Origin: a virus
Lineage: Duplodnaviria > Caudoviricetes
IMG/VR virus record: IMGVR_UViG_3300046795_000031
Coordinates: 1 to 31,500 of that record
DNA: 31,500 bases
Reading direction: 5' to 3' (one strand)
Shown: piece after piece, positions 10,892 through 31,036 of the stretch
Position numbering within the stretch: position 1 is the first letter of the stretch
Layout: the number at the start of each line of letters is the position of its first letter
Notes under the pieces: generated by a model
Seen by the model: the letters and a program-made list of their open reading frames with translations, nothing else
Database searches by the model: none
What the model was told of the DNA's origin: nothing
Program-made: the position numbers and the translations under genes

Positions 10892-11401
10892 ATGAAACGC
10901 AGGATTGCTAAGTCTGCGGATTCCCTTGTCTCATCGGTTGACCAAACTATATCTTATCAGACGTTGCCAAGTCCTGAAGAACTCGGCAGAAACGCCCAAA
11001 CCCAGCCGGGGCTCGACATTATCGGACGTAAACCCGGCCCGCGCATTGCGTCGTCTGACGAGCCCATGCCCGTCGATCTCATCAGCAATGCCGGCGCCCT
11101 TGTTGTCCCCGATGAGCGTACGATCCCGAACGAATATGAGTTCGAAATCTTGCGGCTACGTCGCCGCGTCGATTCCCTGGAAGACGCTATCAGGGAAAAA
11201 AACGAGCGCAACGTCCACGCGATCGCTATGCTTGAGGACGAGTTGCAGATGTGGCGCAGTTTTATGCACGAGCACGTCGCCGAGACCCACGACGGGATTC
11301 GGCGGCGCGTCTTGCGCATCGAGTCGACTTTAATGACGTTGAAAGAATCGGGCAGCTCTGACCTAAGCGGGGTGAAAGAGTACAAGAGTACAAAAGTATA
11401 A
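10892..11401 (+). CDS. Hypothetical coiled-coil protein
   Basis: Start at 10892 or 10796. C-terminus VKEYKSTKV* is encoded by repeat B3. Confidence 0.65.
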   Translation: MKRRIAKSADSLVSSVDQTISYQTLPSPEELGRNAQTQPGLDIIGRKPGPRIASSDEPMPVDLISNAGALVVPDERTIPNEYEFEILRLRRRVDSLEDAIREKNERNVHAIAMLEDELQMWRSFMHEHVAETHDGIRRRVLRIESTLMTLKESGSSDLSGVKEYKSTKV

Positions 11402-11444
11402 AAGTTCGAGGCTCTTTTACCCTTTTACTCTTGTACTCTTTTAC
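11375..11444. repeat. Family B inverted repeat, copy B3, between convergent genes
   Basis: AAGAGTAC AAGAGTAC AAAAGTAT AAAAGT-tcgagg-CTCTTTT ACCCTTTT ACTCTTGT ACTCTTTT AC. Contains both TAA stops. Confidence 0.95.
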
Positions 11445-11746
11445 AAATTCCGAAGGACCGGAAAAGTCGCGATCTCGGTGCGTAGATCCGAGGTCGTGAA
11501 AGTCAGCTCGGCCTGCACCTCGAAAACGCCATAAGGTACCAGATCGCCGGCTACGGTCGTGACGACGAGCTTACCGTCGCTCCCCGGCGGGTTGGAAAAG
11601 TTAGCGGTCTTTTCCAAGCGCACGCCGTTCGGCTTTTTGAACAGCAATTTTTTGACTGTCGCGGCGGATATGTTCCTGGCGCTGCCGTCGCTATTGAGCA
11701 CGCCGTATTCGATCGGTACCCCTATCGCATTCTCTTGAATTGCCAT
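11441..11746 (-). CDS. Small beta-rich structural protein (BppU N-terminal-like)
   Basis: FKKPNG...DGKLVVTTVAGDL..YGVFEVQAELTF pattern. AGGAG RBS. Confidence 0.6.
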   Translation of the reverse strand: MAIQENAIGVPIEYGVLNSDGSARNISAATVKKLLFKKPNGVRLEKTANFSNPPGSDGKLVVTTVAGDLVPYGVFEVQAELTFTTSDLRTEIATFPVLRNL

Positions 11747-11756
11747 CGTTCTTCTC

Positions 11757-11784
11757 CTAGGGGCGATTCATGAATCGCCCCTAC
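11757..11784. repeat. Family A palindrome, copy A2 (supplies a TAG stop and abuts the next RBS)
   Basis: CTAG-GGGCGATTCATGAATCGCCC-CTAC. Confidence 0.95.
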
Positions 11785-13208
11785 CTATCTCCAATCTTGC
11801 CCGTTAGATCGGCTTTATCCGCCGTCTTGCCGGTGACGCTGATTTGCTGCGCGACCGCACCGGTGGCGTTAACTTGATCCGTAATCACTTTGCCTGTCAA
11901 GCTGATTTGATCGACGGCTTTGCCCGAGAGTTCGAGAGTATCGAATAACGGCGGCGTAACGCTGCCGACTGCGCCCGTCCCGCTAACCCCGGTCAATGCG
12001 GCAATGGTATCGCCTGACGGTGGTAAAATGATGCCGGCCGCGCCCGTCCCGGCATTGCCGGATAACGCGACCGTGATTGTCTTGCCGACCGTACCGACTG
12101 CACCCGCGGCGCTGATTCCGGTCAATGCTCGGGTATAAACCGCCGACGCGCTAACGGTGCCCACTTGGCCGGTTGCGCTAACCCCGGTCAATGCTCGGGA
12201 GTAGGATGTCGAGACGCCAACGGTGCCGACTTGGCCGGTGGCTTCATTGCCCGTCAATGCGCGGGAGAATGATGTCGAAATGCCGACCGTGCCGACCTGG
12301 CCGGTGGCTTCATTGCCCGTCAACGCGCGTACCGTATCGCCTAACGGTGTAACCGTGCCGGCCGCACCGGTCCCGGTATTGCCGGAAAGCGCGACCGTGA
12401 TTGTCTTGCCGACCGTGCCGACTTGGCCCGTTGCAAGATTGCCCGATAACGCAAAGCTTGGTGACGCCGTGACGGTCCCGACTTGGCCGGTTGCGGCAAC
12501 TCCCGTGGTGAGCGCAACTACGTTGCTAGGCGCTAGGCTGCCGACTTGGCCCGTCCCGGCGTTGGTAGTAATGGCCCGGCTTATCGATGGCGCCAAGGTG
12601 CCGATCGCGCCCGTCGCCAGATTGCCCGTTATGGCAGGACTATTATTGGCTATAACCGAGCCGGGCGAGCCGGTGGCAAGGTTGCCTGTCAGCGCCGCGC
12701 TCTGCCCGCTCGATGGTATAAGCGTCCCGACTGCGCCCGTTGCCTGATTGCCGGATAACGCCAGCGCGGTCGATGGCGAAAGAGTACCGGGCGAGCCGGT
12801 GGCTAGGTTGCCGGTCAGCGCCGCGGTCTGCCCGCTCGATGGTATAAGCGTCCCGACTGCGCCGGTTGCCTGATTGCCGGATAACGCCAGCGTGGTAAAT
12901 GGCGAAAGAGTACCGGGCGAGCCGGTGGCAAGATTGCCTATCAGCGCCTTTGTAGTTGACGGTGATAGATTCCCGACCGAGCCTGTGGCTAGGTTGGTGG
13001 TTAATGCAAGAGATAGAGAAGGAGTTACGGTCCCGACCGAGCCGGTCCCTACATTGGTAGAGATAGCCCGGTCTGTGCTCGGTGAAAGCGTCCCGACCGA
13101 GCCGGTCCCGGCGACTCCGGTCAGCGCGACCGTGACCGTAACCGCCGCCGCGCCGACTAGTTTTCTGATTGAAGCGTTAAACGGAAAGGATCGGCCGAAA
13201 CGAGCCAA
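11781..13208 (-). CDS. Gly/Thr/Ala/Val-rich repeat protein, probable fibre or virion structural protein
   Basis: About 19 repeats of AL(T/S)GN.ATG.VG(T/S)(V/L) with a 20-22 aa period. Confidence 0.8.
   Translation of the reverse strand: MARFGRSFPFNASIRKLVGAAAVTVTVALTGVAGTGSVGTLSPSTDRAISTNVGTGSVGTVTPSLSLALTTNLATGSVGNLSPSTTKALIGNLATGSPGTLSPFTTLALSGNQATGAVGTLIPSSGQTAALTGNLATGSPGTLSPSTALALSGNQATGAVGTLIPSSGQSAALTGNLATGSPGSVIANNSPAITGNLATGAIGTLAPSISRAITTNAGTGQVGSLAPSNVVALTTGVAATGQVGTVTASPSFALSGNLATGQVGTVGKTITVALSGNTGTGAAGTVTPLGDTVRALTGNEATGQVGTVGISTSFSRALTGNEATGQVGTVGVSTSYSRALTGVSATGQVGTVSASAVYTRALTGISAAGAVGTVGKTITVALSGNAGTGAAGIILPPSGDTIAALTGVSGTGAVGSVTPPLFDTLELSGKAVDQISLTGKVITDQVNATGAVAQQISVTGKTADKADLTGKIGDR
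12661..12940. repeat. 126-bp tandem duplication inside the repeat protein gene
   Basis: CCGGGCGAGCCGGTGGC recurs at 12661, 12787 and 12913 with near-identical intervening sequence. Confidence 0.85.
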
Positions 13209-13235
13209 TTTAAAACCTCAAATGGCAGCGAGCGA

Positions 13236-13715
13236 TTACGCGATTCTGATTAATCCCGTTGAAGAATCGTTCGTAGGCATGGTGAGGGTGAACGTCCCTG
13301 CCGTAACGCTCTGGCTGCTGAATGTATGAACGGACACGGCCAGCTCCACGGCGCCGCTTGTCGACTTGTTGTTGATAATCAAAAGCGCATCGAAGGCCGC
13401 ACTCGATGTCAACGCCGCCCATGATAGCGAAGCCGAAGGCGTCCAGAATGCCGTCGTGCCGGTCGAACTAGGCGCGTTAGCGTTGGTGATAAGCGCGCCC
13501 TTGGCCGTATAGTTGCCCGTGGCGGCGAGCTCGCCCGACGAGGTGTACACTGTCGTCGCTTCGCTTAGAGTCGCGGTGGTAGTGTAGAGCGCGCCGTTGA
13601 ACGTGTCCTTGGTCGTGACCGTCCGCACGCTGTTGACCGCCTGCGTGCCGAAAGCATGAGAGCCGTTGAGAAGTTGCACCTTAAAGCTCGTGCACATAGC
13701 CTGGGTGTTTGCCAT
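13236..13715 (-). CDS. Putative phage structural protein
   Basis: MANTQAMCTSFK..LL....F...ALYT...YT.SGE...NYTA.G...GTFTLTMP...GLIRIA. Ala/Thr-rich, with AAGGAG RBS. Confidence 0.75.
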   Translation of the reverse strand: MANTQAMCTSFKVQLLNGSHAFGTQAVNSVRTVTTKDTFNGALYTTTATLSEATTVYTSSGELAATGNYTAKGALITNANAPSSTGTTAFWTPSASLSWAALTSSAAFDALLIINNKSTSGAVELAVSVHTFSSQSVTAGTFTLTMPTNDSSTGLIRIA

Positions 13716-13730
13716 AAAAATTATCTCCTT

Positions 13731-13949
13731 TTAGATTTTTTGCGTTTCGCCGAATCCCCAAACCATCGGGGTCTTTAAATGCATGTCAACGGATCGATGG
13801 ACGACTCGACCGGTAGGATTGCTCCGGAGTCGATATTCGACCCAAGTCGTGCGCTCGACTTCGTTGTCGATCTTGCCGGTCGTCTTGATTAGATCGGACT
13901 CGTCCATATAGGTGAGCAGGCCGTCTTCTTCGAGTTGGACTAAAATCAT
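13731..13949 (-). CDS. Hypothetical protein
   Basis: 72-aa ORF starting just after repeat A3. Confidence 0.7.
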   Translation of the reverse strand: MILVQLEEDGLLTYMDESDLIKTTGKIDNEVERTTWVEYRLRSNPTGRVVHRSVDMHLKTPMVWGFGETQKI

Positions 13950-13954
13950 TTTGT

Positions 13955-13983
13955 GTACGGGCGATTCATGAATCGCCCCCTAC
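13955..13983. repeat. Family A palindrome, copy A3 (intergenic)
   Basis: GTAC-GGGCGATTCATGAATCGCCC-CCTAC, directly after the TAG of 13984..14454. Confidence 0.95.
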
Positions 13984-14454
13984 CTATTCTTCCCATTCGA
14001 GATAGGCCTCGCAGGTCGGTGTACCCGTATCCACCTTGAGCCGGATCCCGATCGCCTTATGATTCGTCGATCCCGATAGCAACGTTTTTGGTTCGCGCCC
14101 TAGCGGAAACTGGATCACCAAAGGCCCAGGGCACGGAAACCACCACGATTTAAGTACCGTCAAAACGGTCGGCTCGGCTGAGTATTCGCGCCCATAGGTG
14201 CAGGCCGGTGTGCCGTCGGTGCCTGCCGCATAACCGCCGAGCTGTTTGGCGCCGGTCGAGGAACCTACCGTGCCCGCCGTCGCCTGCGTCGATTCGAATA
14301 ACTCGACAAGACAGCGGCCTGTACCCTGATCGACCGATGCGCCGATCTCGACAATGGTAGCGTTCGCCGTCGCGCTGGCAATTACGTTGCACGCCGTCTT
14401 GGCCGTAGTCGCCAACGCGAAAGCATCGGCTATAATCGTAAATCGTGCATCCAT
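13984..14454 (-). CDS. Hypothetical beta-rich virion protein
   Basis: 156 aa ending YLEWEE. TGATG coupling. Confidence 0.75.
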   Translation of the reverse strand: MDARFTIIADAFALATTAKTACNVIASATANATIVEIGASVDQGTGRCLVELFESTQATAGTVGSSTGAKQLGGYAAGTDGTPACTYGREYSAEPTVLTVLKSWWFPCPGPLVIQFPLGREPKTLLSGSTNHKAIGIRLKVDTGTPTCEAYLEWEE

Positions 14455-15179
14455 CAGAAGTACCCCGCTCTCTTTATCGCCTGTAAATTGATCCTAGACC
14501 CCGCCGCATTGGCCGCCGCCCCTGCCGCCGCCTTGAACGTCATCATTGCAATGATCGCATTATCGCCGGATATGCCGGTGCCGGTAAACGTCGCGGCGAT
14601 CGAGCCGCCTGTCGTTTGGATCTGGTTTTCGCTTTCCAGAGGAGCGGCATCCGAAGCGCCGTCAAAACTCTCTCGCCCTGTATAGCCCGATCCCACGGCA
14701 ATCGTCTTGCCTACGCCCACGTTACAGACATGCACCGCGCCGAAAATATACTCCCCGTTGGCCGTCGTGGTCTTAGCCGTCGATGTCATCGCGTTGGCCC
14801 CGGTGCCGGGGTTGGTCTGCGTGTTGATGAAATGCTGGTCGAGCGGCACCGATAAGTCCGCCCCGCTGATCTCATGGACGACTAAAGAACGGTAGCCGAC
14901 CGATGCGCCCAAGGTGACGGTAATCGTATCGGCCCCCGCAGCAATGTTTTTAGCATACCAAGTCTTGCAAACATCGCCGCTGAAATTGAGCGTGTTATCG
15001 ACCGGCGTGAACGTATTGCCGCGCGTATCGGCGCATGAAGTAAATGTCACATCTGCTGCGATACAATACACCGCCAAAAGATTTCCAACTGCCACGCTGC
15101 TGGTCATGGTCACGGCCACGGTCGTGCTGGTCGTGCCGGTCGTGCTGGTCGACTTCGATTGAACGTGAGCGACCGCCAT
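14454..15179 (-). CDS. Thr/Ala/Gly-rich adhesin-like or virion protein
   Basis: VAVGNLLAV...DTRGNTFT...WYAKN...TITVT...EISG beta-sandwich-like pattern. Confidence 0.7.
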   Translation of the reverse strand: MAVAHVQSKSTSTTGTTSTTVAVTMTSSVAVGNLLAVYCIAADVTFTSCADTRGNTFTPVDNTLNFSGDVCKTWYAKNIAAGADTITVTLGASVGYRSLVVHEISGADLSVPLDQHFINTQTNPGTGANAMTSTAKTTTANGEYIFGAVHVCNVGVGKTIAVGSGYTGRESFDGASDAAPLESENQIQTTGGSIAATFTGTGISGDNAIIAMMTFKAAAGAAANAAGSRINLQAIKRAGYF

Positions 15180-15491
15180 TTATCTGAACTTGGAAAATGC
15201 CTGCGCCATTGCCGATTTGGTGCCGGTCGTGCTGGCATCGGTGTTGTAATGCGCAACCAGCGAATTGAGCTCGGTATATGCCTGATGCGATAGCGCATCG
15301 TTGGCATAGCCGAACTGCGCCGTCATATAGGTATAATGCGCATCCTGCGTGCCGTCGCCGTTGAGCATCAGCGCCATCGCCGAGAGCAGATCTATCAAGC
15401 CGTCCGTGCTCGCCTCAAAATTCAGCATATAGGACTTGAGCAAGCGCCCGTAATTCGTCGTTTCGTTGCATCCGATATGTGTGACAGCCAT
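15180..15491 (-). CDS. Hypothetical protein
   Basis: 103 aa with GAGGTG RBS. Confidence 0.75.
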   Translation of the reverse strand: MAVTHIGCNETTNYGRLLKSYMLNFEASTDGLIDLLSAMALMLNGDGTQDAHYTYMTAQFGYANDALSHQAYTELNSLVAHYNTDASTTGTKSAMAQAFSKFR

Positions 15492-15864: not shown

Positions 15865-15892
15865 GTACGGGCGATTCATGAATCGCCCCTAC
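15865..15892. repeat. Family A palindrome, copy A4 (supplies a TAG stop)
   Basis: GTAC-GGGCGATTCATGAATCGCCC-CTAC. Confidence 0.95.
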
Positions 15893-16602
15893 TTCGACGT
15901 CGTAGCGCAGGCCGTCTGACTCGCCGGGCTGTTCGGGTTCCCGGTTGCCACTACCCCGACGCAATAGCTCGTATACCTTTTGCGCAGTAACCAATCCCAT
16001 GTCGTCACATCAGGAGCCAAAGTCACCAGCTTGACCGCGTCTGTCTTCGGTCCCTTAGCCGTCCTTCCCCAGACCTCGTAGCCGGTTTCATCATCAACGT
16101 CATCCCACGTCACGCGAAGGCTCGACGATGAGACCGCGGCAATCGTCACCCCGACCGGCGTACTCGGCGGAGCTCCGGTAATAGCCGGACTCGTCCAGCA
16201 CGCCTGCACGCTCGGAGGACTGGATTGCGCCGACTTGGTGGCGATGACGTCCCAGCAATGCGCCACGCCGCCCGCATCCGTGAAAGTGTTTTGAAAGCTC
16301 GTCGTGGTCGCCACTACCGTCCCGATCTGCGCCATTGCCCCGCCGGCGTCGCCGCGGCGGATCACATAATTGGCCGGCGCGTCGTGCGTGGCGTCGACCA
16401 CCGAGGCGGTCCAGCTCACCGTCGCTAGGCAATTCTGCGAGGTGGCTGTTACGCGCTGGCAGGTTTTCTGGGCCTCGGCCGGCGCCGCAGCGGCGAGTAA
16501 AAAAGTACAAAAGTAAAAGAGTACAAAAGCCCGGACCCTTTTACTCTTATACTCTTGTACCCTTGTACTCTTGTACCCTTGTACTCTTTTACTCTTGTAC
16601 AT
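15889..16602 (-). CDS. Fibronectin type III domain protein with a repeat-encoded signal peptide
   Basis: Two FN3-like units (VSWTAS...YVIRR; PSTPVGVTIAAVSSSSLRVTWDD...GYEVW). N-terminus ends FVLFYFCTFLLAAAAPAEA-Q. Confidence 0.85.
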   Translation of the reverse strand: MYKSKRVQGYKSTRVQEYKSKRVRAFVLFYFCTFLLAAAAPAEAQKTCQRVTATSQNCLATVSWTASVVDATHDAPANYVIRRGDAGGAMAQIGTVVATTTSFQNTFTDAGGVAHCWDVIATKSAQSSPPSVQACWTSPAITGAPPSTPVGVTIAAVSSSSLRVTWDDVDDETGYEVWGRTAKGPKTDAVKLVTLAPDVTTWDWLLRKRYTSYCVGVVATGNPNSPASQTACATTSK

Positions 16603-16615
16603 TTTTTACCCTCTT
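16495..16615. repeat. Family B inverted repeat, copy B4 (longest; encodes RBS, start and signal peptide)
   Basis: About 4 A-rich units, cccgg spacer, then 8-9 T-rich units (ACTCTTGT/ACCCTTGT/ACTCTTTT). Confidence 0.95.
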
Positions 16616-18643
16616 TTAGTCCGCGCTGATCTCGATCGACGACGCCGAGCTGATCTCCACGGATGCCGGCGCGGCGATCTCCACATATTTCCCCGGACCG
16701 CCGATCAATGGCGTGTTCATGTCGCTGACGATCTGCGTCGGGGATCTCGCGTAGTTATAGATTCGCGGCTCATCTATCTTGCCGACGAAGTTCTCGCCAA
16801 ATTGACTTGCGCCGATGGTTACGTTGGCGCTAGTCGGCGTCATTGCAGGCGCAGACGGCTGGCTAGTGATAGGCTTGCCGTCTAAATAAAACGTCAGCGA
16901 TGAGCCATCGTAGGTTACGGCTAAATAGGACCACGTATTAAGCGGCGGCACTGCGCTGGCGCAAATGAACTGATTGTCCGGCGTGGCGTAACCGCCAATG
17001 GGCGCAATCGGCAATGACGGGCAATAGGCAAGCTCGCTCCCTACGTAGAGAAAATATCGCTCGCCCCTGATAACAGCACTGAAGCCGGATAATACGGCAG
17101 TCGGGAAAATCCAGGCCTCCAATGTCATTGCAGGCGCAAGCGCCAAAGAAGCCGAGGCGGTAATATTCAAATTGCCGGTGCCGTCGAACATCACCGCCTT
17201 GCCGTACTTGCCGGCATTGTCCCACGTCACGCCGCCGACCAGAGCAGCATTGTTTTTTTGTCCCGATACATCGACCGCGCTGGTCCCAGTACCTTCGTCG
17301 AGGGGCAAAGCAAGCACTAATTGATTCGGGGGTGGCGCTACTGTGCCGGCAAACTCATAAGCACCCATGTCATAAGCACCGACACGGGCGGCGTTGCTAT
17401 AATCGACGTCATAGGGTGCCCCAAGAGTCGCCCCTGCATTGATGGCGGGAGAGCCAGCGGATAAATGGAAATCGCTGCCAGGATTTACAAACAATGGGTT
17501 TCCTGCACGCGAGCACCCGGCGCTAAGCGTCGGACAAAAATTATTTGAGACGTTGGCCCCAACTACGGAAAAAAGCGGCCCCGTCATAGTGTTCAGGATG
17601 TTATTCTTAACGATGGTATCGGACAGATTCTCAAACCCCGCAGCACTCATGCTATAAACCGTATTTTCTGCAATCGTCACATTTGAAGCGGTCGAATGGA
17701 GCGCAACAGCCTTCGTGCCACAGTTAAAGATATTGTTAAATATCTTTTGGCTGCTCGATGAGTCCGCGTGCCAAAACATGATGGCAGGAGGATTACTAGG
17801 GTCAGGCGGGCCAGATGTGCTACAAGCTCCGTAGTGGTGAAAATAGTTTCCCTCTATGGTGATGTTGCCTATCTTAAAAATTCCTTGGGAATTCATGTGA
17901 ATCCCGTAGGAAGGGAAATCGTAAAATTCGTTCCCCTTGATGATAGAATCGTACCCTTTGGCATAAATCACATAAGCAAATCCCACCCCATCGGTGAATC
18001 CGCCACTATGAAATTTGTTATTTAACACCTCTATGTTATTCCCGTCCTGAGGCGGACCGTCGTGGCCGAACATGAACATATTGTTCTTAGGCGAGTTCTT
18101 CCATTCGTTGTATTGAAAACGCACATAATTAGGCCCGGTATCGCCGCACGCTATACTTACGCCTGCGTCCGTGACGGTCATCAAGGCCATGTCAAAAACA
18201 AAGCCGTCAATGATGGTAAAATAGTTGGTGCCTACGGCAGGACTACACCAACGCAGCAAGACGCCATCACGTCTAATCGTAACCGTTCCCCGCGTTTCTG
18301 CTTTGAGCGTGAACGGGGCGCTCCAAGACGTACCCCTTGGCATCAAGAACACTCCAAGCGAAGCCTCGTCCAAGTTTTCTGAGTAGGTTCCCGGTTTGAC
18401 GATGACCGTCTTGTTGGCCCCGGCCCCAGCTGAAGTGCCGATACAATCCAGCGCGGCCTTGATCGTGGTTGACGGCGTGGAGGAAGTTTGCATCGTGGTG
18501 CAGTTGGTCGTCGAGCCGCCCCCGGCGTAGTAGGTTTGCGCGGCGGCAGACGGTAAAAAAGTGCAAAAGTACAAGAGTAAAAGAGCGAGGAAAAATCCGA
18601 GACTCTTGTACTCTTGCACTCTTTTACTCTTATACTTCTTCAT
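16616..18643 (-). CDS. Right-handed beta-helix plus LamG/concanavalin domain protein with a repeat-encoded signal peptide
   Basis: TIKAALD...VIVKPGTYSE, repeated I..N.F turns, DFHLSAGSPAINAG...YDMGAYE, and a LamG part (MTLEAWI...WSYLAVTYDG...GKIDEPRIYN). Confidence 0.9.
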   Translation of the reverse strand: MKKYKSKRVQEYKSLGFFLALLLLYFCTFLPSAAAQTYYAGGGSTTNCTTMQTSSTPSTTIKAALDCIGTSAGAGANKTVIVKPGTYSENLDEASLGVFLMPRGTSWSAPFTLKAETRGTVTIRRDGVLLRWCSPAVGTNYFTIIDGFVFDMALMTVTDAGVSIACGDTGPNYVRFQYNEWKNSPKNNMFMFGHDGPPQDGNNIEVLNNKFHSGGFTDGVGFAYVIYAKGYDSIIKGNEFYDFPSYGIHMNSQGIFKIGNITIEGNYFHHYGACSTSGPPDPSNPPAIMFWHADSSSSQKIFNNIFNCGTKAVALHSTASNVTIAENTVYSMSAAGFENLSDTIVKNNILNTMTGPLFSVVGANVSNNFCPTLSAGCSRAGNPLFVNPGSDFHLSAGSPAINAGATLGAPYDVDYSNAARVGAYDMGAYEFAGTVAPPPNQLVLALPLDEGTGTSAVDVSGQKNNAALVGGVTWDNAGKYGKAVMFDGTGNLNITASASLALAPAMTLEAWIFPTAVLSGFSAVIRGERYFLYVGSELAYCPSLPIAPIGGYATPDNQFICASAVPPLNTWSYLAVTYDGSSLTFYLDGKPITSQPSAPAMTPTSANVTIGASQFGENFVGKIDEPRIYNYARSPTQIVSDMNTPLIGGPGKYVEIAAPASVEISSASSIEISAD
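18553..18640. repeat. Family B inverted repeat, copy B5 (encodes a signal peptide)
   Basis: AAAAGTGC AAAAGTAC AAGAGTAA AAGAG-spacer-ACTCTTGT ACTCTTGC ACTCTTTT ACTCTTAT ACTTC. Confidence 0.95.
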
Positions 18644-19737
18644 TGAATCCCCACCACCCTTCGCCGCGTTCCCGCCCCTCCCACAGTAGCTATGTCGCCC
18701 ACTTCAAAATCGTCGAGCCGCGCCGTTTCACTGCCACTGACGGCAAACGCGGAATTGAGCATCATGCCGCCGCGTCCGCTGGTATGAGTCGAATCCGTGC
18801 CCGTCAGAACGGAAACGCCATTGCGAAAAACGGTCAGTCCCGTGCCGCTGATTTCGAGCCGCGCCACATCGCCGAAGCTCCATAGGGGATAGCCACTTTC
18901 GGTGCCAACTGTTGTCGAAGCACCGGCTACGCGCTTTTGTAAAAGGGTGGATACGCTGCCGCTGACATGCCGCCCGCAGCGGGCAAAATAGCCACTAAAA
19001 GTGCTCGGCGCTGCCATGCGCACGGCTGGACCGACATCACCATCTCCGGTCGTAAGGTATTGCACGATGACGCCTTGAGCGTATTGATCCGGCCCCGGCG
19101 TAACTGCGTTATAAGAAGCAACACAGCGCGAGCCGATGGCACACTCTGCGGCATTGCTGACAACCGTAGGGGTTGACTCACCGGTATACCCGCCGCTCCA
19201 ATTAGCACTGAGCGCAGAAGTCCCTGTGTTAAAGTTGTCCGTCGCCGAGGCTGCCCACGCCAAGGCCGCGCCGAGTAGGGGCGATTCATGAATCGCCCTT
19301 ACGGCGAAGCGAATCGCCCGGTCCCGGTAGTCCCGCCATGAGCCCTTGATGACCGCCGGAGGTGGAGTCATCGCCTTTAGATCGGCCTTTGGATCGCGTA
19401 TGAGGATAGCCGCTGCCGCCTCTGCCGGTGGTATTGCCTTGCTGGCAATTCCCGGCGGAAGCGTCAACGTAGTAGGAAAACAGACGTAGGTGTCGGGATA
19501 TGTCGGCTTGCCATCTGGATTGCTTGGAATATGCGCCGACCAGTTAGCGCCGAGCATTCCCTCGACACCTGGCGGGATAGCAGGTCTATAAGGCGAGCTA
19601 TCCGAGCCATTACCGATGATCGGCAATAAGAGGCAGTCCGCCTGCGCAAGCGCGGGGAAGTACAAAAGTATAAAAGTACAAAAGTACAAAGGTCCGAGAC
19701 TCTTGTACACTTTTACTCTTGTACCCTTGTACTTCAT
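18640..19737 (-). CDS. Two-domain protein (Pro-rich N-domain plus concanavalin-like C-domain) with a repeat-encoded signal peptide
   Basis: Start MKYKGTRV at 19737, one nt after the upstream TGA. ALAQA-D site. C-domain ATDNFN...DQYAQ...RLEISGTGLTVFRNG...LDDFEVG. Confidence 0.8.
   Translation of the reverse strand: MKYKGTRVKVYKSLGPLYFCTFILLYFPALAQADCLLLPIIGNGSDSSPYRPAIPPGVEGMLGANWSAHIPSNPDGKPTYPDTYVCFPTTLTLPPGIASKAIPPAEAAAAILIRDPKADLKAMTPPPAVIKGSWRDYRDRAIRFAVRAIHESPLLGAALAWAASATDNFNTGTSALSANWSGGYTGESTPTVVSNAAECAIGSRCVASYNAVTPGPDQYAQGVIVQYLTTGDGDVGPAVRMAAPSTFSGYFARCGRHVSGSVSTLLQKRVAGASTTVGTESGYPLWSFGDVARLEISGTGLTVFRNGVSVLTGTDSTHTSGRGGMMLNSAFAVSGSETARLDDFEVGDIATVGGAGTRRRVVGIQ
19275..19302. repeat. 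Family A palindrome, copy A5 (in-frame VRAIHESPL)
   Basis: GTAG-GGGCGATTCATGAATCGCCC-TTAC, with an extra half copy GAATCGCCCG at 19311-19320. Confidence 0.95.
19657..19735. repeat. Family B inverted repeat, copy B6 (encodes a signal peptide)
   Basis: GAAGTAC AAAAGTAT AAAAGTAC AAAAGTAC AAAGGT-ccgag-ACTCTTGT ACACTTTT ACTCTTGT ACCCTTGT ACTTC. Confidence 0.95.
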
Positions 19738-19738
19738 T

Positions 19739-21460
19739 TCATTCACTATCCACCACAAACGTGATCGTCACCGTGACTCTTTTAGTTGCACCGCCGACCG
19801 CCGCATTGACCATGACGAAATCAATCATCTGACCGATAGCGATGGCGTCCTCGCCTGAAACAAAACTCGTCGAAGTCGCACCGCTTGTAGTGCAATCCAG
19901 ATCGGACGAAAGAATATTCGCCGGGCTGCCATCATTGCGCTGCAAGTTTATTCTGGCGGTATTGGTATTCGTCCTGCACTTGACGCTCGTAATGTGAAAA
20001 GCCGCCAATTGATTCTCGTAAATATCCGGTTGATCGTCGCCGTTGGTAAGGTCGGCACCCGTGTCCGATCCGATGATGAAAGTAATGTTGCGCTTTCTAA
20101 GCGTCGCCGCCTGGATGCCCACTTTACCGGTGGTGCCGGTCGCTTTTAGTTGAACGCTGTTGGTGGAGACATCCCCGATCTCTATTTTCTTGCTTGAGTT
20201 GATGCTGTCCGCATCCTCGCAAACTGTACTATCGTTGAGCGTTGTGGCGCTGGCCGCTTTGGATAAACAGCCGGTAGCCAAACCGCTAATGCCGCCGGGC
20301 GCGTTGCCGAGCTGCGAGACCATTTGAAAATTGGTCCCATCGTGGACGACTTCAACGATCTGGCCGGCGCGGATATCGTTGTCGACAAGATCGGTCGTCA
20401 CGCCGCCCACCGGCTTTTTGATCGTGACCGGGCTGGCGATGCCGTTCAGTGCCAACGTCGCCGCGCCGGTGTTGGCCGTATTCGCTTTAAAAAAGTAATG
20501 AGCGCCGGTCGTATACGCCGTGATCGACGGTGTCAGTGCGCAAGCATAGGCGTCGGTCGATCCGGCGTCGGCACAGTACGCGCTCGCCCCTGGATTGATG
20601 ATAGTCGAGAGAGCGCGCCAGCTGCTCACACCAGAAGTCGCATCATATTGGAGGATCAAGCCCTGATTCGGCCCGACTATGATATCGGAACCGAAGGCAA
20701 AGCGGCTGCCGGTAGCCGATGACGATGATTGATTAGGGAAGATCGCAGCAAAACTGCCGACGTTGTAAAGCGTGAGGATGCGTCCGTCTTGCCCGCCAAG
20801 AAGTCCGGTGATCGACCATATCGCGTTAGTGCTGAATCTGATCGTTGAGGCGGTCGAGAGGCCGGTTGGATTCCAGTCGTTGGTGTTGGCGGTCAAAGCG
20901 GCTGGCGTGATATCGCCGGCGAGGTCGAGGCGGCCGAGCTGGATGATCTTGCCGAGGATCGCCACAGTCGAGCATAGACCAACTTGAGGTTGCGGACCGC
21001 CTGGATTGATAACGCATATTTCGTTACTCGTTGGCAATACGTCAGTGACATCGCCAGTCCCGCCGCCACCCGCGCCGCCGCCGATCGACGCCCATGCCGA
21101 GCCGTTCCATGCGCAAAGCACGCGAGTCGAGCCGCCGCCCACTGTGCAATCCGTCCCGCTCGCGCCGTTTGTCACGATCGAGAGCGGATGCGAGGCAGGG
21201 AGAGCCGCAACCGTATATTCGGGCAATTTAAATAAAACTGTCTTGCCGGTGAGATCCACCGTACTGCAAAGCGTGATCGACGGCGCGACTCCTGGCGTAT
21301 TGCCAATGCAAACCGCATTGGTCTCGCCTGTCGGAATCATTTCAGATTTGCGCGGGATGTTCGGGCTGATCGATGAATCGGGAATGTATTGCGCCGCGTG
21401 TAGGGGCGATTCATGAATCGCCCCTACGATGACCAATAAAATTAATAATATTTTTTTCAT
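19739..21460 (-). CDS. Mosaic tail-fibre-like protein with a signal peptide
   Basis: Start MKKILLILLVIVGAIHESPLHA-A at 21460. Fibre-type modules (FKANTANTGAATLALNG...DIRAGQIVEVVHDGTNFQM; GGQDGRILTLYN). Confidence 0.8.
   Translation of the reverse strand: MKKILLILLVIVGAIHESPLHAAQYIPDSSISPNIPRKSEMIPTGETNAVCIGNTPGVAPSITLCSTVDLTGKTVLFKLPEYTVAALPASHPLSIVTNGASGTDCTVGGGSTRVLCAWNGSAWASIGGGAGGGGTGDVTDVLPTSNEICVINPGGPQPQVGLCSTVAILGKIIQLGRLDLAGDITPAALTANTNDWNPTGLSTASTIRFSTNAIWSITGLLGGQDGRILTLYNVGSFAAIFPNQSSSSATGSRFAFGSDIIVGPNQGLILQYDATSGVSSWRALSTIINPGASAYCADAGSTDAYACALTPSITAYTTGAHYFFKANTANTGAATLALNGIASPVTIKKPVGGVTTDLVDNDIRAGQIVEVVHDGTNFQMVSQLGNAPGGISGLATGCLSKAASATTLNDSTVCEDADSINSSKKIEIGDVSTNSVQLKATGTTGKVGIQAATLRKRNITFIIGSDTGADLTNGDDQPDIYENQLAAFHITSVKCRTNTNTARINLQRNDGSPANILSSDLDCTTSGATSTSFVSGEDAIAIGQMIDFVMVNAAVGGATKRVTVTITFVVDSE
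21400..21427. repeat. Family A palindrome, copy A6 (perfect 28 bp, inside a signal peptide)
   Basis: GTAGGGGCGATTCATGAATCGCCCCTAC. Confidence 0.97.
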
Positions 21461-21462
21461 GT

Positions 21463-21699
21463 TTACCAGAAATATCGCGCCCAAAGGTCCACGCCGCTTG
21501 CCGGCGCGATCCCCATCTTGACCGCCGTACCCGACACTCCGTACTCCGCCTCGCCCGGTGTCGGATTGACCGCCACGCGCACTTGACGGATGCCGCTGTG
21601 AACGATCATCATGCTTTCCGCTATCGGCGTGTGACTGATCGTAAAGTTCACGTTTGATCCGTTCTTGGTGCCGATGAGATCTTCGATAACCCACGTCAT
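21463..21699 (-). CDS. Small beta protein paralogous to the C-terminal domain of 22086..22847
   Basis: EDLIGTKNGSNVNFTISHTP...HSGIRQVRV versus ETPSGGTGTVFTLSQNP...WSGLVLKRV. An alternative GTG start at 21774 adds a hydrophobic leader. Confidence 0.75.
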   Translation of the reverse strand: MTWVIEDLIGTKNGSNVNFTISHTPIAESMMIVHSGIRQVRVAVNPTPGEAEYGVSGTAVKMGIAPASGVDLWARYFW

Positions 21700-21797
21700 G
21701 ATCCACCAAAGTAAAAAAGTACAAAAGTAAAAGAGTAAAAGAGTCCGGACTTTTTTACCTTTGTACTCTTGCACTCTTTTACCCTCTTATATTTCAT
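21696..21797 (-). CDS. 33-aa micro-ORF encoded by repeat B7
   Basis: MKYKRVKECKSTKVKKSGLFYSFTFVLFYFGGS. ATGA overlaps at both ends. Confidence 0.5.
   Translation of the reverse strand: MKYKRVKECKSTKVKKSGLFYSFTFVLFYFGGS
21707..21793. repeat. Family B inverted repeat, copy B7
   Basis: AAAAGTAC AAAAGTAA AAGAGTAA AAGAGT-ccgg-ACTTTTTT ACCTTTGT ACTCTTGC ACTCTTTT. Confidence 0.95.
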
Positions 21798-21994
21798 GTC
21801 TTTACTTCCCATTGATCGTAAAACCGGCACACCGAATTCTGATAAATCACCTCGGCAGAGAGCAGCCACGTCTCGTTTGGCACCTGCCCGACATCGCGGA
21901 TCGAGCGCAGCTTGCCGTAGTCGATCCAATCGCCCTCGCCCCATTTGATTCTTATTTGCTGCCCTACTACCGGCAGTCCTTCGGCAAATGTCAT
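21794..21994 (-). CDS. Hypothetical protein flanked by two family B repeats
   Basis: Start MTFAEGLP at 21994. Confidence 0.65.
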   Translation of the reverse strand: MTFAEGLPVVGQQIRIKWGEGDWIDYGKLRSIRDVGQVPNETWLLSAEVIYQNSVCRFYDQWEVKT

Positions 21995-22089
21995 AATCTC
22001 TCGAATGTACAAGAGTAAAAAAGTACAAAGGTAAAAGAATCCGAGGACTCTTGTACTCTTGCACTCTTATACTCTTTTACTTTTTTCAT
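21991..22089 (-). CDS. 32-aa micro-ORF encoded by repeat B8
   Basis: MKKVKEYKSARVQESSDSFTFVLFYSCTFERL. ATGA overlaps at both ends. Confidence 0.5.
   Translation of the reverse strand: MKKVKEYKSARVQESSDSFTFVLFYSCTFERL
22005..22086. repeat. Family B inverted repeat, copy B8
   Basis: AAGAGTAA AAAAGTAC AAAGGTAA-aagaatccgagg-ACTCTTGT ACTCTTGC ACTCTTAT ACTCTTTT ACTTTTTT. Confidence 0.95.
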
Positions 22090-22847
22090 GCCGTCACATA
22101 TTGGGCGGTGATATTTTGCCCGGCTACAACACTTGAGCCCATCGTAATAGTGCGGTTGCCGACACCTCCCGCGGTAAACTGAAGCTCTGCCGGTGCCGAG
22201 GCGACGCGCTTCAAAACTAAACCCGACCAGGCGACGATTAGGGAATTCAAATCGGGGTTTTGACTCAGTGTAAATACCGTCCCGGTCCCGCCGCTCGGCG
22301 TCTCGGTGACGAACGTCCCTATATTAGCGACTGTCGACGGCGGCGTCGGTATCGTCTGCGGCGGGACGTCGAGCAGCGCCGCCTGGATCGCGGTGATCTC
22401 CGAATTGGAGATGATCGAATTGAGCTTGCAGACATGACTGATATGTATTCCAAGAGCGCCGACATATACGCCGCTGCCATTAAACGGATTGCTATTAGTC
22501 GGCGTCGACTTGGGTACGCGATCTTCAAACCAAATCAGCGTGCTTGCATTGCTTAATATATTCTCAGTAGCAAATGAGAGAGTTTCTCCGGTAGTCATCG
22601 CGATGCCCAAATTGAGTTCATAATAGCCGTTGCTATCCACTGCATATTGAAATCGCGGTACATTGACCGCCACAGCATGAATGAATCCATCCCGCCGAAT
22701 CGCAGTCGATGTACTCGCTCGCGTAAATGTCACGCCATCGATCCCCATGAAGTCCAGGTTATCCAATAGCGGCGCATAGAAAGTGATTTTCTTGCGCAGC
22801 GTGTAGTTCAATTTCAATAAATTGGCGATGGTCCAAAATTGCAACAT
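22086..22847 (-). CDS. Putative tail fibre/adaptor protein
   Basis: TFTRASTSTA..RDG.I..VAVNVPRF motif typical of fibre N-termini. Follows the tail-tip gene. Confidence 0.7.
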   Translation of the reverse strand: MLQFWTIANLLKLNYTLRKKITFYAPLLDNLDFMGIDGVTFTRASTSTAIRRDGFIHAVAVNVPRFQYAVDSNGYYELNLGIAMTTGETLSFATENILSNASTLIWFEDRVPKSTPTNSNPFNGSGVYVGALGIHISHVCKLNSIISNSEITAIQAALLDVPPQTIPTPPSTVANIGTFVTETPSGGTGTVFTLSQNPDLNSLIVAWSGLVLKRVASAPAELQFTAGGVGNRTITMGSSVVAGQNITAQYVTA

Positions 22848-22917: not shown

Positions 22918-25900
22918 TCAGGCAATATCCGCGTCCGTTATCCTTTGCAGTTGAAAATCATTGGATTGCACAAAGGCGCTCATATTGCCGCTGAAATCAA
23001 TGGCCCGCACTTGAACATAAAGACTCTGCCCGGTCCCATCAGGGTGGAAGTAGGGCGGCGGGTTGTTGCTCAAGTCAAAAACCATCCGCACATTGCTCGT
23101 CTGCCCTACCAGCGCGGCGCTCGTTCCTGCCCTGGCCTGTGCATAGCCGATTAGGTTGCCGCGATAGGGATTGCCTGAAGCATCGAGAAGAAAGTCGAAA
23201 CTCACGACTACGGCCTCTATCGCGGCGAGATCCAACGAGGTTGGCAGATTGAAACTCGCCTGAATCGTGACGGTTTTTAAAACGCCCCAGGCTTCCACGG
23301 TACGCGGAGGATCTGGCGGTGTCGTATCGCCAAAAAAAGTCGTCGGCCCACGAATTACCGGAGCGAAATTATTGTAAACTCCGCTTGAATTGAAAGGCGT
23401 GAATCGATGATACCAAGTACCGCCTTGATCGCCTCCGTCACGCTCCCAGTGTATTCCGGTGGGGCGCGCCAGTTCATACCAGTGTATTCTGTCCGCAGAT
23501 TGCTCGATTTTGAATCCGTATGTCTCGCTGAAACTTGTCCAGCGAATACGATAGGTCGTGCCAATGGTCGGCAGTCCGGTGAACTGCTCGCAAGCTGCCG
23601 AACGGCTAAGGGCGTCGTAATATAAAATCTTTCTTTCCTGGTCGTGAAACGGTCCATCGGCGATAAGTAAATAAGCGCCTCGATAATAATTGGTCTGCTC
23701 GGCTATCGACGGTTCGTTAAAATCCAAAACGATGACGGTCGTAGTCACATCGGTTATACCGGCACCCATCGGCCCTGCCGTATGCGCATTGCCCGACATA
23801 TGACCGCCATGTACGGCCAGCCCGCGAGTAATATCGAATAGGATAACTGCTCCCCAACTCCCATCCCTTCTTTGCACTACTTGGCACTGCACCGAAGCGT
23901 CGCGGATCGGAATCGGCGGCACGATAGATAGCGGAAATCGTTTGCGATCAAGCCCCGGCGGTAGCGCATCGGGATTATAAACCTCCTCGATATATTCGGT
24001 CCGGATCTGCGTGATATGCCCCTGATCGTCGATCTGAAAGTCCCGCGCCCGCGTCTTGATGTGGTCGATCAATTCCACGCCGATGGCGAATATCGCGCCC
24101 TCTTCCACCGGATTATTGAAAGACGAAGCCATCGCGATCTCATTCCAGCGGCCCGGCCCCGTAGCTATCAGGCGCGTCTCACATAAGCTCATCCCCTTGT
24201 GTTGAATAATGGCGAGATAGCTTTTCCCTACCTCAAGCTCGATGGTGTAAGGCAAATATAGAGTGGCGACGGTACAACCTGCCGGGAGCACTCCCGTATA
24301 TGCGCCGATATCTCCGATGGTGCGCTCGCTCAGCCAATCGATATCGAACGGCTCGCCTGTCAACTGACTTGAAGGCGAAACGAAACTGAACCGGCGCTTT
24401 TCGAGATCCTGCCGTTTCATTTGAATCATGTTTTCGCGGATCACCTCGGACTCGCGGGTAATAGTCTCGTAAGCAACCACCTTTTGATTGACCGAAGTTC
24501 TCGGCGCGATGCTGTCTATCGGCTGGGAAAGCTCGCTCGTGTAGTCGCTTGCGCTGTCTCTAAATTGACCGACGATTTGATTGAAGGGATCGTCCGGCGG
24601 GCTGATCTCCATCGAGATCGAGCCTTCGATGATATTGCCCGGCTCGGCGAGTAGCATATTCGGCGTGCCGGGTTTGTCGATCACATATTTCCAAAGAAGT
24701 CCTGATGGAAAAACACAGGCGCGGCCCTCGCCTGCAACTCTTTTCACCCAATCCCAATCCCATCGCCGCTCGGTTATTCCGACATCGCAGAGGTCGCGCT
24801 GCTCCGTACCGCCGCCCTGCGCCGGGACTAACTCGTCATAGTAAGCGAGCGAGTCGAAATGCCATTGGCTGTCATCTATCTCAGCCTCGCTGAATTCATA
24901 GCCCATGCCGCAAGTAGGATGCACCATCATGTCGCGCACGATCTGGGTGCGCTCTCGCGTATAGGATAGCGGCGACCCCGGTATCAAAACATTCTTGCAC
25001 TTCTTACCTTTGACGAATGCCGACACTTCGACGGACTGAAGATTCTTGACTTGATTGCCCTGCAATCCGGTAATTCCCAACAGCACATAGCCGGGATAGT
25101 TCGTAGTCGTATAGCTCACCTCTTCAACGTTAAATATGACCACCGTGGTGGCATGAGGATCTTGTATCGAACCCAGGCCGGCGCTATTGACGGTGATCTT
25201 CAAATCCCATTGCCCGGCCGGCGCAAGCTCGTCATGCCAGATCGCGCCTTCAAACTGCCCGAACATAATCCAATGCTGAAAAGCCGCCATCGGTGAGCTG
25301 CCGTGAAACGGATCGGCGGCCACGTCGGGACGGTCGGCCCAATATTGATTCGCCGCTTCCAGGGACACCATAGAAGTCTGGATATAGACGTCGCGAAAAA
25401 AGGCGCTCCGAACGGCGTCTTCTATGTGCCACAACGGCCCCGACACACTAGGCACATAGACAAAATCGGCACTGCTGCCGGTCCGCCTTAAATCGATGCG
25501 CAGGTCGACAAAGTCCTGACGAAATTGTCCCGTCTTAGTCGCGCTCCAAAGACCGGCGGGAAAATGCAGAATCAGTTTAATTACATTGATGTTATTTCCC
25601 TGCGTCGTGTAATTGAGCGGCGTGCCTTCTTCGCGTGTCTCATTATAAGGTAAGGTCCGACCGTCAACGAATAGATTCGATGTCCGGCTGAATTCAGGAA
25701 TAACGCTTTGAGTCAGACTCCCGAGCCGGGTGTGGACCGTGACGCCCTTGTATTGATCGGCTGGTATCCTGTCGATTCGCACGTCATAGATCGCTTCATA
25801 ACCATCGCCGCCGCTGTCGCCGATGCAATAAAGAATATTGGCGAGCATGGTCGTATAATCAGCAGACAAGTTCGCGCCCGATGCGATCACATGTCCCCAT

Positions 25901-26352
25901 ACCCTTTGCTCGCCGTACCAGACTGGGATCGGCACGCCCTGCCCCGTAGTGTTTTGAAATCCGGTAATGCCGAAGGCTTGGCCGCTGCTGCCGTCGAGCT
26001 TTGGCGCTTTGGGATTGGGAGTCAGTGCTTTGACTATTGCCGACATCGCTATCGACACCGCTATTGAGGCGACGATATTGACCACGGTAGCCGCGACCGT
26101 CCCCGCTGCTAACGCTGTCGATAAAGCAGGGATCAAGGCAAGAAGTGGCGCTCCTGTTTTTAACCCCAAGCGCACCCGGTCGCTCTTTTGTGGGACATAG
26201 CTTTGCCAATCGGCAATCAATCGGCCATTGATTAAACACGTCTCGACCGCTGGCAAGCACTCTTTGAGCAACGCCGCAAGATTAAGCCCGCAGGCATCTA
26301 CCGCCGCGCTCTCTTCGTATCCTGCCGGGCCATCTGCAACCGTTAGGAGCAT
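22918..26352 (-). CDS. Tail tip / host-specificity protein (lambda gpI-like N-terminus fused to a gpJ-like body)
   Basis: Hydrophobic ALIPAL...VSIAMS segment, GVPIPVWYGEQRVWG, RLGSLTQSVIP, VKGKK, GNIIEGS and a C-terminal FN3-like region (DTTPPDPP...VRAIDFSGNMS). Confidence 0.9.
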   Translation of the reverse strand: MLLTVADGPAGYEESAAVDACGLNLAALLKECLPAVETCLINGRLIADWQSYVPQKSDRVRLGLKTGAPLLALIPALSTALAAGTVAATVVNIVASIAVSIAMSAIVKALTPNPKAPKLDGSSGQAFGITGFQNTTGQGVPIPVWYGEQRVWGHVIASGANLSADYTTMLANILYCIGDSGGDGYEAIYDVRIDRIPADQYKGVTVHTRLGSLTQSVIPEFSRTSNLFVDGRTLPYNETREEGTPLNYTTQGNNINVIKLILHFPAGLWSATKTGQFRQDFVDLRIDLRRTGSSADFVYVPSVSGPLWHIEDAVRSAFFRDVYIQTSMVSLEAANQYWADRPDVAADPFHGSSPMAAFQHWIMFGQFEGAIWHDELAPAGQWDLKITVNSAGLGSIQDPHATTVVIFNVEEVSYTTTNYPGYVLLGITGLQGNQVKNLQSVEVSAFVKGKKCKNVLIPGSPLSYTRERTQIVRDMMVHPTCGMGYEFSEAEIDDSQWHFDSLAYYDELVPAQGGGTEQRDLCDVGITERRWDWDWVKRVAGEGRACVFPSGLLWKYVIDKPGTPNMLLAEPGNIIEGSISMEISPPDDPFNQIVGQFRDSASDYTSELSQPIDSIAPRTSVNQKVVAYETITRESEVIRENMIQMKRQDLEKRRFSFVSPSSQLTGEPFDIDWLSERTIGDIGAYTGVLPAGCTVATLYLPYTIELEVGKSYLAIIQHKGMSLCETRLIATGPGRWNEIAMASSFNNPVEEGAIFAIGVELIDHIKTRARDFQIDDQGHITQIRTEYIEEVYNPDALPPGLDRKRFPLSIVPPIPIRDASVQCQVVQRRDGSWGAVILFDITRGLAVHGGHMSGNAHTAGPMGAGITDVTTTVIVLDFNEPSIAEQTNYYRGAYLLIADGPFHDQERKILYYDALSRSAACEQFTGLPTIGTTYRIRWTSFSETYGFKIEQSADRIHWYELARPTGIHWERDGGDQGGTWYHRFTPFNSSGVYNNFAPVIRGPTTFFGDTTPPDPPRTVEAWGVLKTVTIQASFNLPTSLDLAAIEAVVVSFDFLLDASGNPYRGNLIGYAQARAGTSAALVGQTSNVRMVFDLSNNPPPYFHPDGTGQSLYVQVRAIDFSGNMSAFVQSNDFQLQRITDADIA

Positions 26353-30570: not shown

Positions 30571-30941
30571 TTTTCCGCTGATTCAATGGGTGCCTCGTCT
30601 GTCTTGGGCTCGATCTTTAGGTATGTTTCAGTGATTACCCGCAGCGTCAATTGCATCACGTCGCGCAGGTCAAACGGCATCTGTCCGACTGCGTCGATCG
30701 ACAGATCGGGATCTTCATGGAGCATCGAGGCCCATAAGATCGCCTCGCAGAAGTCCATCCCGACGTCGCCCTGCTCGACCTGCGGTAGCTCTTCCATCAT
30801 GATGCGGAAAATAGCTTTGCGCGGCTGCAAGTTTCTCGACTTGTTGAGCTCGCGCTCGGCCGCCTTGAGCCCGCCGACCGTCAGTAATAGCCGGCGCGGC
30901 TTGTCGAGTTCGATGTCTATTGGCTGTACGCCTGCTCTCAT
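30516..30941 (-). CDS. Tail assembly chaperone gpG-like
   Basis: IELDKPRRLLLT...ILWASMLHEDPDLSIDAVG. Lies between the major tail and tape measure genes. Start at 30941. Confidence 0.85.
   Translation of the reverse strand: MRAGVQPIDIELDKPRRLLLTVGGLKAAERELNKSRNLQPRKAIFRIMMEELPQVEQGDVGMDFCEAILWASMLHEDPDLSIDAVGQMPFDLRDVMQLTLRVITETYLKIEPKTDEAPIESAEKKNLMKLNGTATSGPSPE
30562..30576 (-). promoter_or_regulatory. Programmed -1 ribosomal frameshift slippery site
   Basis: GG-AAAAAAAAAA-TTT near the 3' end of the gpG-like gene. Confidence 0.8.
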
Positions 30942-31036
30942 AAAGAATCGACGTATAAGGGTAAAAGAGTACAAGAGTAAAAGAGTCTTCGGACTTTTGT
31001 ACTCTTGTACATTTGTACTTTTGTACTTCTTTTCAC
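30938..31036 (-). CDS. 32-aa micro-ORF encoded by repeat B9
   Basis: (M)KRSTKVQMYKSTKVRRLFYSCTLLPLYVDSL. GTGA overlap with the major tail stop and ATGA overlap with the chaperone start. Confidence 0.5.
   Translation of the reverse strand: MKRSTKVQMYKSTKVRRLFYSCTLLPLYVDSL
30953..31033. repeat. Family B inverted repeat, copy B9
   Basis: AAGGGTAA AAGAGTAC AAGAGTAA AAGAGT-cttcgg-ACTTTTGT ACTCTTGT ACATTTGT ACTTTTGT ACTTCTTT. Confidence 0.95.

Follow-up and report, generated by a model that had tools for sequence, protein, structure and literature searches.

The 31,500-nucleotide (nt) stretch analysed here (hereafter the window; positions 1 to 31,500 of IMG/VR record IMGVR_UViG_3300046795_000031) represents most of the genome of a lambda-like tailed phage, as indicated by profile matches, and its minus strand encodes the major tail protein, the tape measure, tail-tip proteins and the central fibre J. 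After the tail tip gene J, in the window as well as in sister phages, four genes termed A6, B6, B5 and B4 form one tightly coupled run (Table 1). Each opens with a leader that reads as a Sec-type signal peptide and that is built from, or contains, a short DNA repeat of family A or B. The initial annotation had described the four genes in these terms, with the same start positions and repeat-built leaders, and the description held when open reading frames (ORFs), spacing and orthologues were compared. The spacing to the upstream stop backed the assigned starts (-4 nt for B5, +1 for B6, +13 for B4 and 2 nt for A6), as did the orthologues, in which the mature part starts at the matching residue. 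The GAGGG ribosome-binding site (RBS) that the B4 repeat had been said to supply was found 6 nt before the ATG, inside the repeat.

Table 1 Features of the window around the four leader-bearing genes and related repeat elements (aa, amino acids).
Feature	Position	Strand	Description
A6 gene	19739..21460	-	573 aa; 22-aa leader and predicted homotrimeric tail fibre; 12 mature Cys
B6 gene	18640..19737	-	365 aa; 33-aa leader and two domains; 5 mature Cys
B5 gene	16616..18643	-	675 aa; 35-aa leader, beta-helix, choice-of-anchor Q and LamG; 10 mature Cys
B4 gene	15889..16602	-	237 aa; 44-aa leader and two FN3 domains; 6 mature Cys
B4 leader coding region	16471..16602	-	predicted cut between AEA and QKTC
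B element 4	16496..16612		RBS, start, n- and h-region of B4; hairpin z-score -6.9
B element 5	18553..18641		n- and h-region of B5 leader; predicted cut between AAA and QTYY; hairpin z-score -6.3
B element 6	19657..19735		n- and h-region of B6 leader; predicted cut between AQA and DCLL; hairpin z-score -4.0
A palindrome in A6 leader	21400..21427		GTAG-tagged, REP-like; replaces older stretch of the leader
A palindrome in B6 linker	19275..19302		in frame, inter-domain linker
A palindrome at B4 end	15865..15892		gives TAG stop of B4; absent from same junction in sister L001
78-aa gene	21463..21699	-	leaderless; candidate cytoplasmic adaptor
B7 mini-ORF	21696..21797	-	33 aa; -4 coupling at either end; no element at this site in L012, L017 and L018
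66-aa gene	21794..21994	-	leaderless
B8 mini-ORF	21991..22089	-	32 aa; -4 coupling at either end; no element at this site in L012, L017 and L018
253-aa tail protein gene	22086..22847	-	leaderless; weak phrog_5939 match; candidate cytoplasmic adaptor
Central tail fibre J	22918..26352	-	phrog_31; leaderless; marks tail-tip module directly upstream
B9 mini-ORF	30938..31036	-	starts at GTG, 32 aa; -4 coupling at either end; flanked by the major tail protein and tail chaperone genes

Family A is a 28-nt, GTAG-tagged palindrome with a short stem-loop, present in 10 copies (family D7), and its 24-mer occurred in 50 stretches of viral contigs. Family B comprises nine AT-rich inverted arrays of 8-mers; the five B regions that were folded gave predicted hairpins with z-scores from -4.0 to -6.9. 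In B4, B5 and B6, the purine arm of the B element encodes the basic part of the leader and the pyrimidine arm the hydrophobic part, and the AEA, AAA and AQA motifs come from unique sequence, just as the initial annotation had read them. In the A6 leader, the contribution of the palindrome is confined to the c-region and the last part of the h-region.

The four leaders displayed the usual layout of Sec signal peptides. Their n-regions carried a net charge of +2 to +8 before uncharged h-regions of at least 7 residues, with best 8-residue hydropathy values of 4.11 (A6), 3.3 (B5), 2.42 (B4) and 2.27 (B6). Small residues occupied positions -3 and -1 in B4 (AEA), B5 (AAA) and B6 (AQA), and A6 had a looser LHA. 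By the customary definitions, neither the RR motif of Tat substrates nor a lipobox Cys was present in the four leaders, the +1 residues being Q, Q, D and A. A crude heuristic that demands a basic n-region followed by a hydrophobic h-region flagged A6, B5 and B4 in the window, none of the 11 upstream tail genes and 4 of 40 other genes tested; it missed B6, which has a stronger hydrophobic window in its mature part. However, appearance by itself is poor evidence for a B leader: of the 54 frames through the nine B elements 27 are open, and 20 of these read basic-then-hydrophobic, so that the decision falls to the orthologues.

Orthologue N-termini were therefore compared. For B4, 30 of 32 orthologues had a locatable cut and at least 15 leader residues, the two truncated ones being dropped; all 30 passed the heuristic and carried A or V at position -3, and mean identity rose from 0.31 before the cut to 0.72 after it. 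For A6, 18 of 22 orthologues were usable (three truncated and one short were dropped). All 18 passed, with V, L, A, I or S at -3 and, in 17 of them, A, S or G at -1, and mean identity rose from 0.24 to 0.74 across the cut. B5 had a 73% homologue (P0157) and a second relative (L002) with leaders before the same QTYYAGGG mature start, and 9 of the 12 two-domain B6 homologues shown passed as well. The four leaders are thus very likely Sec signal peptides, as initially annotated, and the proteins would be exported and cleaved.

It could be argued that the hairpin-bound repeat start is silent or minor, and that a cytoplasmic form made from a downstream start is the one on the virion. The B hairpins do cover the start region, and the B4 protein stands on record without its leader, as the gene caller placed its start downstream (P0121). 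Nevertheless, no ATG is present at the start of the mature B4, B5 or A6 regions, and conservation begins at the AxA cut in orthologues with plain, repeat-free leaders. In addition, the predicted start accessibility of the repeat leaders (0.25-0.53) overlapped that of eight plain leaders (0.31-0.66); start-hiding hairpins as a special trait of repeat leaders were not supported. Dual routing or lack of export is thus improbable, and the assigned starts appear to be right.

Domain searches and models bore out the FN3, beta-helix/LamG and fibre-like domains assigned earlier to B4, B5 and A6. The two FN3 domains of B4 were modelled at a predicted local distance difference test (pLDDT) score of 92, and its six Cys are at least 90% conserved. 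B6 has two domains and no match to a named family. A phmmer search at E 0.001 retrieved 1901 proteins; among the best 150, most aligned with the second domain alone, and this domain had no match among GenBank phages. In the B6 linker (19210-19330, minus strand), a leader-like stretch ends the linker before the second domain. It is shared by repeat-free homologues, in some of which basic residues precede it, and is possibly a relic signal of an old fusion or a second processing site. A new fusion created by the internal A repeat was rejected, for the two-domain form is present in repeat-free homologues.

Several lines of evidence identify A6 as a predicted homotrimeric tail fibre, namely partial matches, its place in the tail module and a predicted trimer. 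The best match in the PDB was the Pa193 tail fibre (9B45; E 1.6e-5), and all five matches among GenBank phages are annotated as tail fiber. Three copies of mature residues 1-265 gave a trimer score of 0.92 compared with 0.39 for the best control, with at least 88% contact agreement between runs and pLDDT of at least 85. In a calibration made on two copies, 20 of 30 solved homodimers attained this mark, as did 1 of 23 single chains; likeness to solved fibres may have helped the A6 score. As a single chain, mature residues 1-160 were poorly modelled, and the low pLDDT of the monomer (62.8) accounts for low Foldseek TM-scores. For the N-terminal part, the ESM Atlas offered a weak lead only, PF26696 PTL_trimer, on 16% of cluster members (score 0.90).

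Leaderless phage tail fibres assemble in the cytoplasm. A6 shares its fibre domains, predicted trimer and place after the tail tip gene with the Pa193 fibre, with phrog_4900 tail proteins and with the T7-type fibre of MW202742, but differs from leaderless, cytoplasm-assembled fibres in the leader kept by every usable orthologue. The MW202742 podophage fibre has the same domain with no leader and 1 Cys, whereas A6 has a cleavable-type leader and 12 Cys. A closer counterpart was found in Bradyrhizobium phage ppBdUSDA122-1 (OP596612), whose tail fibre WAX24263.1 shares mature A6 residues 119-260 at 35%. This gene and its neighbour WAX24264.1 follow a tail protein gene, have leader-like starts and encode 18 and 6 Cys, respectively; unlike the repeat leaders of the window, the OP596612 leaders look plain by eye. 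The host, the non-pathogenic laboratory strain Bradyrhizobium diazoefficiens USDA 122, spontaneously releases siphophage particles (PMC10127595), and signal peptide, tail fiber and proteomics go unmentioned in the main text of that paper. A literature search, thin on subscription journals, yielded no account of signal peptides on phage tail or virion proteins.

Disulfide bonds are formed in the periplasm, not in the cytoplasm. Among 97 non-orthologous homologues, the A6 fibre domain (residue 295 onwards) could be placed in 89, and 85 had a Met start and both columns of a flanking Cys pair filled. The pair was found in 46 of 48 leader-bearing homologues and in 1 of 37 leaderless ones, and the median whole-protein Cys content was 1.95% with a leader versus 0.32% without. 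A weaker trend of the same sign was seen for B6 domain 2, in the 92 of 142 matches that were shorter than 260 aa and had a Met start: at least two Cys occurred in 27 of 32 leader-bearing proteins (even counts in 24 of these 27) versus 30 of 60 leaderless ones. The cysteine pattern fits export and gives indirect support to it, and the pairs may form disulfides.

The initial annotation proposed that a DNA repeat had been exapted as the targeting signal. One form of this idea is that the repeats created the export signal and rerouted formerly cytoplasmic virion proteins to Sec. Three of the leaders are almost wholly repeat-coded, most open B frames have the required polarity, and the same domains occur in leaderless phage proteins. 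Moreover, the three B leader frames took ranks 1, 2 and 5 in hydrophobicity among 28 open frames (P 0.003, post hoc test). However, plain leaders formed the majority, in 22 of 27 B4-family and 18 of 23 A6-family proteins, and occupied all deep branches of the trees, and repeat leaders were confined to scattered tips and belonged to four families: A, B, an 8-mer family C and a 7-mer family D. Repeat leaders were called with a 4-mer dictionary, by which other families can be missed. Starred branches force at least three (B4) and at least four (A6) changes of repeat state, and the sisters P0008 and L002, with end branches of 0.02-0.03, carry different families (D and C, respectively).

The DNA of ten related loci told the same story, the same junctions being either filled by each phage's own family or empty. 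For B5, L002 has a plain leader, P0157 only the pyrimidine-arm peptide and the window both arms, which suggests a series in that order; the pyrimidine arm in the window aligns with older leucine codons. In A6, the palindrome has replaced the end of a plain leader, and its flanks still match L001; microhomology for this insertion ranked in the top 2% of 30-mers in L018 and in the top 22% in L001. For these four genes, creation of the signal by repeats is therefore largely refuted and highly improbable. The export signal is likely older than the repeats, which would have replaced or grown inside existing leaders. Of the exaptation proposal, the first half stands, as the repeat now serves as the leader; given that the B leader frames are among the most hydrophobic, it performs the function of the signal and may be adapted to that role. 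The other half, that it gave rise to the signal, does not. No account of repeat-derived signal peptides or of such arrays was found in the same literature search.

The turnover also bears on whether the hairpins are a phage-specific device selected to gate translation of exported genes. Strong hairpins lie over the starts (z-scores of -4 to -6.9), their arms stay complementary and coupling is preserved. Yet close sisters have nothing, or a different family, at these sites, and elements are also found at head, early and convergent-gene junctions. Gating is the least probable of the explanations considered, close to negligible. In L011 and L014, tail-module junctions where sisters hold repeats contain inserted genes, including HNH-like ORFs, and such junctions thus seem to be general insertion hot spots.

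Of the 7 B elements located between genes, 5 contained a coupled mini-ORF, where 0.94 would be expected (P 0.0002, post hoc test). B10 and B12 end at -4, as do the mini-ORFs of Table 1, but B2 and B11 do not; B11 lacks an overlapping stop and was counted as a miss. B1 extends the upstream gene to a -4 overlap. One observation runs the other way: in B7, a frame with a GTG start is also open into the leaderless 78-aa gene. As for the short direct repeats that mark the ends of mycobacterial interspersed repetitive units (MIRU), CATGA flanks B7 on both sides, and flanking repeats are not clear at B8. B3 (11371-11444) lies between convergent genes in a terminator-like position and overlaps the end of a repressor-like plus-strand gene. 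At 30190-30260, two A copies stand in frame at the C-terminus of the second (probably frameshifted) ORF of the tail chaperone, a site empty in L011 and L014. In other phages, an A palindrome was seen in frame in a terminase large subunit-like ORF (L042, about 401-424), and a different 8-mer inverted array occupied the same kind of junction, past a tail-tube-like gene, in an unrelated phage (L028, 2915-2990).

Known mobile repeats offered close parallels. MIRU enter genomes at start codons and bring along a small ORF with -4 nt coupling (PMC12548453; PMC3184786). B7, B8, B9, B10 and B12 are MIRU-like in their start-codon insertion and -4 coupling, with empty sites in sisters at B7 and B8. However, MIRU are mycobacterial with GC-rich internal inverted repeats, and B is an AT-rich inverted array of 8-mers in a phage that also fuses in frame as a leader; family B works like MIRU but is not MIRU. 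GTAG REPs often supply TAG stops and sometimes lie within ORFs (PMC3733652). Family A resembles them in its GTAG end, short stem-loop, TAG stops and occurrence inside ORFs, and differs in being found in phage genomes and within a leader. No RAYT match was detected among the phage ORFs scanned. Rickettsia palindromic elements (RPEs) are likewise palindromic repeats tolerated in frame, but they measure 105-146 bp and add peptides to mature proteins, whereas the repeat peptide here would be cut off (listed in PMC3184786 and PMC3733652). A scan of viral contigs for B arms gave 11 stretches, with a true B element in the same phage only. The search for a host with a strict B pattern over genome contigs gave a single match, an AT-rich Sulfurimonas contig without a B element.

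Contig G001/L084 matches both window ends with 100% identity over 2023 and 150 nt, does not extend over A6, B6, B5 and B4, and encodes terminase, portal, protease and capsid, so that the two together span a circle of about 40.85 kb. Family searches of this closed genome matched no GH108 endolysin, tyrosine integrase or other lysin family; a sister (G003) has GH108, and in sister L001 the gene cluster lies between J and the holin-like and GH108 endolysin genes. Past the holin-like gene of the window, a second run of structural-looking genes (11441-15491, minus strand), all leaderless, encodes proteins of 103, 241, 156, 72, 159, 475 and 101 aa, including a 475-aa protein with 60-66-nt repeats; a PHROG match was obtained for the 159-aa protein only. 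A fifth leader-bearing gene (8638-9447, minus strand; 269 aa, plain leader, 8 Cys) is located in the early region next to a superinfection-immunity gene, and sister L085 has a leader-bearing gene in the matching slot. Runs of leader-bearing genes in or near structural modules were also seen in two unrelated phages (L010, 3835-8606; L007, 3459-11387).

Taken together, the explanation we favour, and hold to be probable with room for doubt, is that the products of these late genes, including the A6 fibre, leave the cytoplasm through Sec, acquire disulfides as they fold in the periplasm and are attached to completed particles when the cell lyses, and that the repeats are later passengers. Late transcription would be followed by coupled translation of the four genes; the host Sec system would export the proteins, the leaders would be removed, and folding in the periplasm would be assisted by disulfides. 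At lysis, the exported proteins would meet finished particles and join them. There is a precedent for the last step in T4, whose fibres can be added last to finished particles in extracts. Short repeat families, presumably of host origin, would have settled at gene junctions and start codons. Where the neighbouring genes are cytoplasmic, a B element would mostly persist as a coupled mini-ORF. At an exported gene it could stay in frame, because its purine arm is basic, its pyrimidine arm hydrophobic and the leader discarded, and it would take over the existing signal peptide under some selection for the most hydrophobic frame. The locus would thus likely encode an exported tail fibre with MIRU- and REP-like passengers.

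A broader formulation, to which we give an even chance, is that tailed phages possess a second, extracytoplasmic assembly line. Host-recognition fibres and decorations routed through Sec, disulfide-bonded and trimerised in the periplasm would dock at lysis on leaderless adaptors, for which the 78-aa and 253-aa proteins are candidates. The throw-away leaders would act as a sink that mobile repeats overwrite repeatedly without loss of function.

The weakest link of the favoured explanation is the attachment of the exported proteins to the virion, which we infer, and a number of observations count against the explanation as a whole. Family searches recognised no endolysin in the closed genome, so that the lysis step is unaccounted for. 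The leaderless run at 15491-11441 could provide ordinary appendages. A6 itself had no Pfam, PHROG or NCBIfam match, and among homologues of its domain the tail family phrog_4900 was matched by 31 of 37 leaderless proteins and 15 of 42 leader-bearing ones. Leaderless two-domain B6 homologues exist (P0193 and P0224), the B4 leader is unusually long, and one B5 relative is named from a Deltaproteobacteria metagenome-assembled genome. The hydrophobicity-rank and coupling tests were defined after the data had been seen. In a 93-column tree, the association of leader and Cys pair was represented by two independent pairs on starred branches and seven on all branches, which was not significant, and the leader label changed 6-8 times in bootstrap trees; with only two independent pairs on strong branches, the association is not shown to be free of ancestry. 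Finally, the domains of B5 (choice-of-anchor Q, beta-helix) and of B4 (FN3) resemble those of host-type secreted proteins.

The last point also speaks for the most serious rival, according to which the exported proteins never join the virion and instead work at the surface of the infected cell, as adhesins, decoys or receptor blockers. The leaderless structural-looking module downstream is consistent with this role, and the Bdellovibrio MAT proteins provide a precedent for signal-peptide-bearing, fibre-like trimers at a cell surface (PMC10769870). Like the MAT fibres, A6 is proposed to be a phage-tail-fibre-like trimer acting outside the cytoplasm after a signal peptide. MAT fibres, however, are chromosomal surface adhesins with a shared N-terminal domain of about 130 aa, and A6 belongs to a phage tail operon. 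Against the surface role, both the window and its sisters have these genes directly behind J within the coupled tail run, the leaders show neither a membrane anchor nor a lipobox, and in a 10.5-kb region of OP596612 the sole gene annotated as tail fibre has such a leader. As an integrase was not found, a lysogenic surface role is less obvious. We regard a surface role as unlikely, though a good deal less so than dual routing.

If A6 is indeed on the virion, addition of exported fibres at lysis would be a wide exception to the rule that the assembly of tailed-phage particles ends in the cytoplasm. Receptor-binding parts could then make use of disulfides and host-type secreted folds, and the host Sec and Dsb systems would be phage assembly factors. 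With empty and filled sites in one phage lineage, the locus also suggests that mobile repeats can replace a working signal peptide several times, and inverted arrays of 7-8-mers would be pre-fitted for such replacement. For annotation, the case carries a warning, as repeats of this kind mimic signal peptides and hide true starts, as the leaderless B4 record illustrates. A culturable Bradyrhizobium siphophage with the same kind of leader-bearing fibre makes the question open to experiment.

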